Shown here: positions 2,962 through 43,163 of the stretch, one piece after another
How positions within the stretch are numbered: the first letter of the stretch is position 1
How the letters are laid out: every line of letters starts with the position of its first letter
NCBI GenBank assembly: GCA_964016885.1
Contig: CAXHJY010001664.1
Location: 1-52,999, forward strand
Source: Eledone cirrhosa
Lineage: Eukaryota
Length of the DNA stretch: 52,999 nt
Direction of reading: 5' to 3'
Position numbers and translations under genes: made by a program
Notes under the pieces: model-generated
What the model was told of the DNA's origin: nothing
Seen by the model: the letters and a program-made list of their open reading frames with translations, nothing else
Databases searched by the model: none

Positions 2962-3032
2962 TATTTTATCTGATGAGAACGCAAATATCGTCCCTGGATG
3001 ATATTTGTTTTTGAAATGCGCATAATAAAATA
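2962..3032 (+). ncRNA. Type I hammerhead ribozyme motif (family C)
   Basis: Stem I TATTTTAT/ATAAAATA, core CTGATGA at 2970-2976, long stem II (CAAATATCGTCC/GGATGATATTTG), GAA, palindromic stem III ATGCGCAT. Predicted cleavage after A3024. Confidence 0.8.
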
Positions 3033-3280: not shown

Positions 3281-3368
3281 ATATATATAAGTTTATCCCG
3301 GGTTCAATCGGGGGTTATCACAGAAAGTAAGGTACTCAATACATAGCAGAGTTTAATATAGAAAAGGC

Positions 3369-3410
3369 TTCTACAGGACTAGAAATGTTTCATTCGGGAG
3401 AAATCATCAG

Positions 3411-3413
<3 letters not shown>
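3369..3413 (-). ncRNA. Hammerhead motif family A (stem I truncated by TA tract, one stem III mismatch)
   Basis: Minus strand reads TTC-CTGATGA-TTTCTCCCGAAT-GAA-ACAT ttctagtc CTGT-A-GAA. Confidence 0.6.
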
Positions 3414-3466
<53 letters not shown>

Positions 3467-3756: not shown

Positions 3757-3964
3757 TGTATGGCTACATGCTGGAGGCACGCTCCAGTGAATGTGTGTGA
3801 GAGATAAACGTGAGACAGAAGCAACAGAAGGAAAGTGTGACAAAAGAATCTTAGGTGGGGGCGGTGTCAGATTTCCCTTGGTAGTAGTAGTAGTAGTAGT
3901 AGTAGTAGTAACAGTAGTAGTAGTGGCGGTGGTGGTGGTTTTCGATTAGCCTTCTAGTTTCTAT

Positions 3965-4235
<271 letters not shown>

Positions 4236-4381
4236 AATTGCTTCTACAGAACTAGAACAGTTTCATATTCAAAATATTTCTTTCAAATGAAACAGTTCTA
4301 GTCCTGTAGAAGCCATTTCTATATTAAATATGATCTTTACACTCTACTAATGTATTGAGTACTTTACTAACTTTGGTTACC

Positions 4382-4415
<34 letters not shown>

Positions 4416-4511
4416 ACTGTGTCTACTCTGGAATTTTACATTACGTATTGAGTACTCTGAGGTTCAACCGGTACCAGCAGTGAAACCCATGCTAGTCCCA
4501 TCAACTTATTT

Positions 4512-4571
<60 letters not shown>

Positions 4572-4576
4572 CGCGC

Positions 4577-4651
<75 letters not shown>

Positions 4652-4729
4652 TGTGTGTGTGTGTTAGGATCAAGCAGCCGAAACGGCCGGAGCTCATCGT
4701 TGGGGTCATGAACCTTTTCATATATACAT

Positions 4730-4793
<64 letters not shown>

Positions 4794-4842
4794 CAATATA
4801 TATATATATATATACATACAATATATATATATATATATACAT

Positions 4843-4919
<77 letters not shown>

Positions 4920-5142
4920 ACAAAGAAAGTGTTGTAAGGAACTAGGTGGACATACTCGATACTTAGGGTAGTAGAGTGGTTTAGTTCGGATCTAGCTGTC
5001 GAAAGGGCCGGACCTCAGTTTCGGGGTCCTTACTCTTTTCCTATATGCACATGTATATACGTTATTCCGGGTTGAATCGGAGGTAACCACAGTAAGTAAG
5101 GTACTCAATACATAGCAGAGTATAAAAGTTTTAATATAGATG

Positions 5143-5193
5143 AGATTCTACAGGACTAGAACTGTTTCATTCTTTAGAAATCATCAGGAATCT
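5143..5193 (-). ncRNA. Type I hammerhead ribozyme motif family A
   Basis: Minus strand reads AGATTC-CTGATGA-TTTCTAAAGAAT-GAA-ACAG ttctagtc CTGT-A-GAATCT. The element (about 5058-5193) is near-identical to 42961-43095. Confidence 0.8.
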
Positions 5194-5325
5194 GGGTATC
5201 AAAAAATAAAAATGGTATTTATAGGTCTCTACAAGTGGTAGGAGAGGGTAGGGAGTGGGATGGGTGTAGGTCATTGGTTGATAGAAAAGGGAATATATAT
5301 ATATATGCATGTATGTAGACATACA

Positions 5326-5361
<36 letters not shown>

Positions 5362-5524
5362 TGTATGTAGACATACATGCATATATATATATATATATAT
5401 GCATGTATGTAGACATACATGCAATAAAGGAATAAATACCCTAAATTTATCTTTAAACTAGTGGCGTGCAGTGTTGAAAAGTCGTGTAAACTTTGCTAGA
5501 TATAGCTCAACCTAGCTATCCTGG

Positions 5525-24780: not shown

Positions 24781-24849
24781 ATATATTTTATCTGATGAAA
24801 ACGTACTGGAACACCATTGTACCTTTGAAATATGTATAATAAAATATAT
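24781..24849 (+). ncRNA. Type I hammerhead ribozyme motif family D (intron 1, sense)
   Basis: Stem I ATATATTTTAT/ATAAAATATAT (11 bp), CTGATGA at 24792-24798, stem II GTAC-TGG/CCA-GTAC, GAA, near-palindromic stem III ATATGTAT. Predicted cleavage after A24838. Confidence 0.75.
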
Positions 24850-25069
24850 ATTTTGGTGAATATTTTTCATTTATTAATATTTTGAATAATATATATATAT
24901 ATATATATATATAAGATCAAAAGATGGTTAAAAGAGTTCTTTTAACCATTTTTTGAACTTATATATTATTTATACTCCAGTCCTACAAACTGTAGAGTGC
25001 TTCTTATCCGATATCTGCATTATTTTATTGTACTACAATAAAACTCACCTCCTACATATATATAACCAC

Positions 25070-31626: not shown

Positions 31627-32639
31627 TAGATATATATGTGTATGTGTGTGTGAGTGTTCTGGAGAATGAGTCAGTAGGCGTAAGTGTGCGCACTGTAGAG
31701 TGCTAGACAAGCCGGTAGCTCTATATCAACATACAAACTCATCGTTTCTCACACGTCCACGTGTGCACGTGACTCCTGCACGCGCACGCTCATTGATACA
31801 CACACATTAAATGCGATAGATTTCATCTAGCTCATAATAGGGAGACGACGTTTCGTTTTGAACACGGGACGGCACCTCCATTGTAAGGAGTTTCACTTTC
31901 CCACAAGAGCAGCTGCTTCGTTATGTTAGTGAATCACTGCCTCCTTCAAGGCCACCCGATATCGCCCCCCCCCCCTCCCCCACCCTCCTTTCACTAGTAT
32001 CTGGTCATTGACAGTATCGGTAGAGCGTCGGATGCTTCGTAGCATAGAGTTACGACTCTTTACGTTCTGAGTTCAAATCCTGTCGAGGTTAGTTTTCTGT
32101 GTGACAGTCCCTATCATCTCATTTCTACAGCTGAGTAAACTGGAGCAACGTGAAATAAAGTGTCTTGCTCAAGGAAACAACACATCACCCGGTCAGAGAA
32201 TTGAACTCACAACCTTTCGATTGCAAGCCCAATGCTCTAACCATTAAGCCATGCGCCTGTCATCCATTCGATGTCGATAAAAAAAAGTACCAGTCAAATA
32301 CTGGGATCGATTCTTCCTCTATATCTCTTTCTCGCTTCCTTTCTTTCACTCTTTCAATCCTTCTCTGAAAGAAATTTGCTGTGTTCAGACCTGTAGATGA
32401 GAAAGGCTTAGTCAGGGTTAAAAATGCCCTAGAAACGCCTATGTCAATATAGCGCCCCTAAAAATCCCTCGGGAGTTACGGATCCTGACAAATAGACTTC
32501 TCCTGTCCCTATTAATCTCTCCCCTCCACCTTTTCCGCCTTATCCCCACCCTCCCACTCTCGTAATATCCTGGCTCAGAACATGCAACCGTCTAAATCAG
32601 ACATTTTCAGACGATGTTTGAAACAGGTGGCTCGTCTAT

Positions 32640-42679: not shown

Positions 42680-42788
42680 TTATCCCGGGTTCAATCGGGG
42701 GTAACCACAGTAAGTAAGGTACTCAATACAAAGCAGAGTATAAATATTTAATATAGAAAGGTTTCTACAGGACTAGAACTGTTTCATC

Positions 42789-42841
42789 AGGCTTCCTGAT
42801 GATTTCTCCCGAATGAAACAGTTCTAGTCCTGTAGAAGCCT
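42789..42841 (+). ncRNA. Type I hammerhead ribozyme motif family A
   Basis: AGGCTTC-CTGATGA-TTTCTCCCGAAT-GAA-ACAG ttctagtc CTGT-A-GAAGCCT: 7-bp stem I, 4-bp stem III, GUA cleavage triplet (after 42834). Confidence 0.85.
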
Positions 42842-42849
42842 TTCTATAT

Positions 42850-42899
<50 letters not shown>

Positions 42900-42905
42900 G
42901 ATGAG

Positions 42906-42952
42906 ATTCTACAGGACTAGAACTGTTTCATTCTTTAGAAATCATCAGGAAT
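42906..42952 (-). ncRNA. Hammerhead motif family A (inverted arm)
   Basis: Reverse complement of 42964-43010, with a 4-bp stem I. Confidence 0.7.
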
Positions 42953-42960
42953 GGTGATCA

Positions 42961-43013
42961 GAGATTCCTGATGATTTCTAAAGAATGAAACAGTTCTAGT
43001 CCTGTAGAATCTC
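42961..43013 (+). ncRNA. Type I hammerhead ribozyme motif family A
   Basis: GAGATTC-CTGATGA-TTTCTAAAGAAT-GAA-ACAG ttctagtc CTGT-A-GAATCTC. Stem I differs from the 42789 copy by compensatory changes. Confidence 0.85.
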
Positions 43014-43094
43014 ATCTATATTAAAACTTTTATACTCTGCAATGTATTGAGTACCTTACTTACTGTGGTTACCTCCGACTCAACCGGGAATAAC

Positions 43095-43163
<69 letters not shown>

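Follow-up and report, generated by a model that had tools for sequence, protein, structure and literature searches.

Hammerhead motifs in inverted pseudo-LTR inserts of a Penelope-like retrotransposon of Eledone cirrhosa, and their likely position at the start of a capped RNA

The two hammerhead motifs at 42789-43013 of the window (the whole stretch of 52,999 nt of Eledone cirrhosa contig CAXHJY010001664.1 that was analysed) are probably best explained, taken as a whole, by truncated and inverted pseudo-LTR inserts from two subfamilies of a Penelope-like element (PLE), by selection on the ribozyme in active elements, and by a model in which a capped RNA starts at the hammerhead and its cDNA folds back. 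The part that appears to be new is the likely position of the ribozyme at a capped start; this kind of element is known, and the mismatch in the core has a precedent.

Positions 42789-42841 and 42961-43013 match a type I hammerhead descriptor with 7+3+4 pairs. Both 53-mers have the sequence given for them in the initial annotation and the GUA sites lie where it had placed them, the GTA triplets ending at 42834 (hammerhead 1) and 43006 (hammerhead 2). The type I core (CUGANGA, GAAA, A15.1-U16.1, H17) is present in both, with three helices of 6+3+4 native pairs and stem I as the open end. The usual 10.1-11.1 pair, mostly G-C in type I hammerheads, is absent and U-U takes its place; as a published, tolerated variant, this mismatch is not treated as excluding the class. 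The stem III/core motif occurs eight times in the window against 0.00 expected from shuffles. At the gathering score, Rfam returned no hammerhead family for the whole window and a single match, to tRNA; this match is weak (32194-32253, minus strand, 29.3 bits against a cut-off of 29) and is perhaps the head of a tRNA-derived SINE.

Absent from the initial annotation was the finding that each hammerhead lies directly 3' of its own reverse complement, the arms of the inverted repeats being 42739-42787/42813-42861 and 42882-42952/42964-43034. In Table 1, element numbering takes the first base of stem I as position 0, and the parent used for comparison is L129.

Table 1. Features of the hammerhead locus and of other copies of the family in the window
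Feature	Position	Strand	Remarks
Inverted pseudo-LTR arm, TCCC-loop subfamily	42680..42787	-	Element +23 to +131; 86% to parent L129; stem II deleted
Head-to-head junction	42788..42789		A42789 complements U4 in the opposite-strand copy and is non-native (native C)
Hammerhead 1, type I	42790..42840	+	Stem I GGCTTC/GAAGCC, U10.1-U11.1, 3-pair stem II, loop TCCC
Hammerhead 1 stem III			ACAG/CTGT; CTAG palindrome within loop; predicted cleavage after 42834
Sense piece, TCCC subfamily	42790-42853	+	Comparison with parent L129
(TA)n microsatellite	42845..42899		Common to both inserts; likely target site
Inverted pseudo-LTR arm, TAAA-loop subfamily	42895..42952	-	Element +2 to +59; 100% identical to parent L129
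Junction filler	42953..42961		G42961 non-native: likely cap-derived, or copied from arm
Hammerhead 2, type I	42962..43012	+	Stem I AGATTC/GAATCT, U10.1-U11.1, loop II TAAA; predicted cleavage after 43006
Sense pseudo-LTR fragment, TAAA subfamily	42962..43097	+	Element 0 to +135; 97.8% identical to L129; shared 3' end before (TA)n
TAAA-subfamily copy with native upstream region	5058..5294	-	TATA box start 5223, stem I 5193, 30 nt apart
TCCC-subfamily copy truncated inside stem I	3293..3414	-	One stem III substitution
Damaged inverted-repeat copy, same family, without CTGATGA box	4240..4381	+	

The two loci are ordinary transposon debris, truncated inverted inserts, and we infer that 42680-43097 would hold two separate head-to-head inserts in one microsatellite. 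The two variants had been said to recur at 3369 and 5143; they do recur, but the invariance claimed for them fails at 3369, where ACAT stands in stem III and stem I has lost its outer 5' strand. In the copy at 5058-5294 (minus strand), CCC precedes AGATTC. The account of non-LTR retrozymes (bioRxiv 10.64898/2026.07.22.740005) offers a likeness in its type I hammerhead related to PLE pseudo-LTRs and in the two motifs 172 nt apart, but the present pair does not form a head-to-tail unit. A retrozyme tandem unit was rejected as a candidate: there are no head-to-tail units, and the motifs come from different subfamilies, with (TA)n and an inverted arm lying between them.

Exact matches to the repeat core number 22,135 across the 3.0 Gb genome, against none for the control, and 1,477 for the TCCC variant alone; the genome pattern kept the core and stem III fixed and left 12 stem II bases free. 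Some copies continue into a long ORF. L129 has the hammerhead from 1009 and the ATG at 1190, which places the ribozyme 181 nt upstream of an ORF for a putative reverse transcriptase (RT) with an endonuclease-like region; the protein carries DKT and YRDD motifs, a CxCx5C linker and a YIG-type C-terminal region. In a search with the first 137 residues of this protein, 150 of 11,944 candidates were scored, many of them lying in 758-codon open frames, and by eye a hammerhead lay directly upstream of the ORF in 22 of the 30 loci inspected. The DKT motif occurs in 93 of 120 homologues and the linker in L121 and in 106 of the 120, while 1598 homologues bear precomputed PF26215/PF28514/PF00078 labels. 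A Pfam scan of two pieces of the ORF gave no family, and RT and endonuclease are called from motifs and homologues. On the 3' side, 80 of 90 copies stop at a common end with (TA)n or (CA)n, and 3 of 90 continue into the leader. A pseudo-LTR with a hammerhead, and truncated copies in direct and inverted orientation, are present as in Penelope-like elements. By these motifs and this copy structure, the host is the pseudo-LTR of a Penelope-like retrotransposon.

Membership of the Hydra clade is likely from the DKT motif, the CxCx5C linker and insertion at (TA)n; in an RT tree of the element and its relatives, its branch is long. As outlined by Craig et al. (bioRxiv 10.1101/2021.04.23.441226), that clade shares with this element a single ORF, a C-terminal endonuclease-like region, the DKT motif, the CxCx5C linker, (TA)n insertion, a hammerhead and inverted, 5'-truncated copies, the last being typical of these elements. 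The same description, as far as the relevant part goes, gives no detail of the hammerhead core, promoter position or an extra G, and the placement made here is by motifs. Other members of the family were seen in passing. The loci L339, L341, L345-L349, L356, L364 and L365 include many copies that are almost identical and have 758-codon open frames, which points to recent activity of the TAAT-loop subfamily. A TTTT-loop subfamily (L101, L107, L108, L111, L119) has an extra T in the 5' strand of stem I (GGCTTTC versus GAAGCC), implying a bulge. Upstream of the hammerhead, L012, L014, L016 and L021 hold an element 3' region with internal (TA)n and (TG)n tracts, common to them over about 880 nt, and L123 contains at 3853-5512 a related but different Penelope-like ORF with YRDD, from another family of the genome.

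The U-U opposition that the initial annotation had read at 10.1-11.1, in place of the usual pair, is fixed: U stands at both positions in 288 of 294 distinct copies, collected with a pattern that left these positions free. Of the 78 metagenome loci whose ORFs are related, a hammerhead-like motif was obtained from 33 and none from 45; with doubtful motifs (L259:136, L302, L307) left out, 29 distinct relative cores have G-C (14), U-U (9), G-U (3) or A-U (3). On a quick RT tree U-U needs four changes, at least three of them forced by well-supported branches. On the sequences compared, U-U is thus both a fixed feature of the family and a recurrent trait of the clade. The idea of a variant hammerhead core holds as regards fixation but not as regards novelty, since a natural hammerhead with U10.1-U11.1, the same mismatch at the base of stem II, was reported by Perreault et al. 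2011 (PMC3088659). In the relevant part of that report U-U is the best tolerated mismatch at 10.1-11.1 and a rare variant, whereas here it is fixed in a large family and found in 9 of the 29 distinct related cores. The metazoan PLE hammerheads of Cervera and de la Peña 2014 (PMC4209133) are similar in being type I, in residing in pseudo-LTRs with thousands of solo copies, and in having pairs on opposite strands, a palindromic loop 3 and a dimer model. Those hammerheads are reported to carry one additional base following A9, to conserve G10.1-C11.1 strongly, and to combine a long helix II with a helix III that is short or absent; in the present motifs no base is added there, 10.1-11.1 is U-U, stem II has three pairs and stem III has four. 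A register with an extra base after A9 was tried by eye and rejected, the mismatch at 10.1-11.1 remaining in this family and in the U-U relatives.

Upstream of the ribozyme, 58 of the 294 copies carry a TATA-like motif, including a few chance matches. The sequence TATAAATAC starts 36 nt before C3, which is 30 nt before stem I, in 44 of these 58 copies and in both subfamilies. Among the relatives, 8 of 28 cores have TATAWA at 34-44 nt before C3, compared with 18 of 989 background windows, and the other 20 of the 28 lack a TATA box. A putative TATA box and initiator have been noted in a rotifer pseudo-LTR. The 5' ends of 90 copies anchored downstream pile up close to the same point: 47 fall at -2 to +14, 28 lie more than 10 nt upstream of stem I, and none is at +45.

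The base directly before GGCTTC was used as a further indicator, C being expected if the sequence is native and A or T if fold-back determines it. Between an AT flank and GGCTTC, a hand count gave G 70, T 15, A 10 and C 5 in 100 matches listed of 115. In a wider GGCTTC set (100 matches listed of 1,159), 29 were native and 54 of the 71 others had G; among these matches listed, about 33 read TCATCAG-GGCTTC or close to it and 10 read TCATCA-GGCTTC, the type present in the window. A cDNA that ends in CC or CCC and folds back on a nearby GG would give both forms. At two internal break points G directly preceded the break in 0 of 23 and 0 of 18 cases; TA microhomology biases these controls towards A. 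Another control, at -11, had A in 20 of 20, but most of what it sampled was native AT-rich sequence and it is uninformative. For the TAAA subfamily G was counted in 48 (100 matches listed of 329), a figure confounded by the inverted arm, in which GAGATTC is read as well. For L1, an additional G is reported to be the sign of full-length capped insertions (PMC11702581). From the TATA spacing, the pile-up and the extra G, it is likely that a capped RNA would start at the first base of stem I, and a literature search found no report tying a Penelope hammerhead to a capped transcription start.

The pile-up and the extra G could instead be due to RT stopping on a longer read-through RNA and adding an untemplated base, with neither a start nor a cap at this point. 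Untemplated addition by retroelement RTs is known, the Drosophila virilis Penelope promoter is TATA-less, and the break points are spread across -2 to +14. However, an RT moving 3' to 5' would be expected to meet the helix at +50, and not to stop at 0 once the helix is unwound; the distance of the TATA box is constant in both subfamilies although the spacer sequence has diverged; and G is missing from the internal break points. We regard this alternative as unlikely and a start with a cap as the better reading.

Cleavage itself has left little to see. Copies starting at the cleavage site number 23, against 18 at a control position (p 0.53), and in the lack of any excess the genome holds no trace of cleavage. 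This fits an uncleaved RNA serving as template, and also a ribozyme that rarely cuts. The PAc Poseidon element of Anolis, as presented by Frangieh et al. 2024 (PMC11167929), is alike in that RT begins internally, at a point of the RNA downstream from the hammerhead, targets are AT-rich and uncleaved RNA is the template; it differs in that its hammerhead overlaps the start codon, whereas here the leader contains the whole hammerhead, 181 nt short of the ATG. A fold kept as a protein-binding or promoter-proximal structure, rarely cleaving in the cell, would account for the numbers of starts at the cleavage site (23 versus 18) and would agree with the lizard PLE, for which PMC11167929 gives, in the passage concerned, no reads ending at the site and unchanged insertion by catalytic mutants. 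Against it, the bases of the catalytic core and the NUH site are all kept across distant families while the stems change, as expected if the chemistry is selected, and cleaved RNA may simply be a poor template. Conservation for a non-catalytic role thus seems improbable to us, and a cleaving ribozyme is retained as the preferred reading.

In the mechanism that we propose, transcription from the promoter would yield a capped RNA whose 5' end is the first base of stem I. Primed in (TA)n, RT would begin near +131 to +135, copy the uncleaved RNA up to the cap and add a C. The cDNA end would often fold back on a nearby GG and self-prime the second strand, giving head-to-head palindromes; either arm of a palindrome can be the long one, a finding that simple fold-back does not explain. 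Cleavage is predicted to be slow and to involve either a dimer held together by pairing of loop III or assistance by the protein of the element, and at +45 it would decap the ORF message or cut tandem transcripts. The most specific form of this model is tentative, and we would give it somewhat less than an even chance: the hammerhead as the first 51 bases of a capped, TATA-driven message, acting as a self-decapping switch ahead of the ORF that is damped by the U-U core and the need for a dimer, with the extra G as a record of the cap and the palindromes made from a sense template by fold-back of cap-terminated cDNA. An antisense template was proposed earlier for head-to-head Penelope palindromes (in the section of PMC3846280 that treats them), and fold-back of cap-terminated sense cDNA would, if true, replace it. 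The role of hammerheads in endonuclease-bearing Penelope elements is called unclear in the relevant statements of 10.1101/2021.04.23.441226 and PMC11167929. With many open ORFs, a start predicted to the single base and a cap-like trace, both this role and the origin of the head-to-head copies become testable.

Compensatory changes in stem I had been the central claim of the initial annotation, and they survive for two pairs. In the 58 promoter-bearing copies, stem I pairs 1-6 are paired in 54-57, pair 4 being A-U in 43 and C-G in 9, and pair 6 A-U in 49 and G-C in 7; a one-step intermediate, AGCTTC/GAAGCT, exists. The outer seventh pair is paired in 1 of the 58, the native base there being C. 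By this comparison native stem I has six pairs and the seventh is a junction product, A42789 and G42961 lying within truncation/inversion junctions. Two of the three apparent double changes (pairs 4 and 6) are native, and they represent two events, not 58; the third falls away as a junction base. From locus L061 onward, seven or more stem I pairs occur in 15 of 110 copies behind an inverted arm, against 1 of 50 native copies. Inverted junctions can therefore fake compensatory pairs, which calls for caution in covariation tests on transposon copies.

Across the 294 copies the core, stem II and stem III are near-invariant, stem II pairs being kept in 276-292, while loop II takes 30 forms and about one third of the positions of the TATA spacer differ between the subfamilies. 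A pseudoknot of loop II with upstream sequence was considered and rejected, no upstream change matching the 30 loop II forms by eye. The claim that the structure is under selection can be upheld for the transposon family, given the fixed core and stems, the variable loop II and the two double changes, but not for these loci. Copy 2 is so close to its parent, at 97.8% identity, that its sameness reflects youth; the resemblance of young copies is by descent and is silent on selection at this locus. Selection likely acted on the ribozyme in active elements and not here. Template switching between the strands of stem I during reverse transcription might have produced the compensatory changes in the absence of selection on RNA structure, and extra pairs do arise at junctions, as the 15 of 110 against 1 of 50 indicate. 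However, both inner changes sit in promoter-bearing copies that include the AGCTTC/GAAGCT intermediate, the core and stems II and III are fixed while loop II and the TATA spacer diverge, and the fold persists, on different stems, in relatives with 36-44% protein identity (under a descriptor that required pairing). This origin is accordingly judged quite unlikely beside selection in active elements.

The suggestion that the two copies are the best candidates for activity as monomers found no support. In context, the plus-strand RNA is dominated by predicted hairpins of -71 and -97 kcal/mol, relative to which the hammerhead fold is predicted to cost 44-68 kcal/mol, and, taken alone, the 53-mers are predicted to adopt the full fold at shares of 0.03 and 0.0015. 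From the proposed RNA start the predicted monomer fold is still weak (P about 0.001). In co-folding predictions, two copies join through the CUAG palindrome into a double hammerhead, the stem III region reaching a predicted -14.8 kcal/mol as a duplex versus -2.4 as a hairpin. The CTAG palindrome of loop III is present in 283 of 294 copies, collected with a pattern that limited changes there, and in the relatives the stem III regions are palindromic or near-palindromic. The palindromic loop III is thus predicted to favour a double hammerhead, and the 4-pair stem III may leave some monomer activity. PLE hammerheads are described as weak dimers in PMC4209133, and PMC11167929 has, for its lizard PLE, a hammerhead that needs protein and uncleaved RNA as the main insertion substrate. 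That both loci are active monomeric hammerheads maintained by selection is very improbable, for although the cores are complete, the 4-pair stem III is longer than in most relatives, U-U is given by PMC3088659 as the best tolerated 10.1-11.1 mismatch and stem I of isolated copy 1 is predicted to fold at P 0.98, each motif is preceded by its own reverse complement with the dominating hairpins, the seventh pair is a junction base, the promoter is absent at both motifs, the sameness of copy 2 reflects youth, and loop III carries its CTAG palindrome.

Hammerhead-like sequence in the window extends beyond this family. Candidate CTGATGA...GAAA motifs belonging to at least three other repeat families occur at 1511 (+), 28144 (-), 43205 (+), 24007 (-) and 26071 (-). 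A second hammerhead family is found at 2962-3030 (+), 24781-24850 (+), 36513 (+) and 36369 (-), the pair near 36 kb being inverted; with its long stem II and palindromic loop III (TGCGCA, TATATA), it resembles the classic minimal PLE hammerheads.
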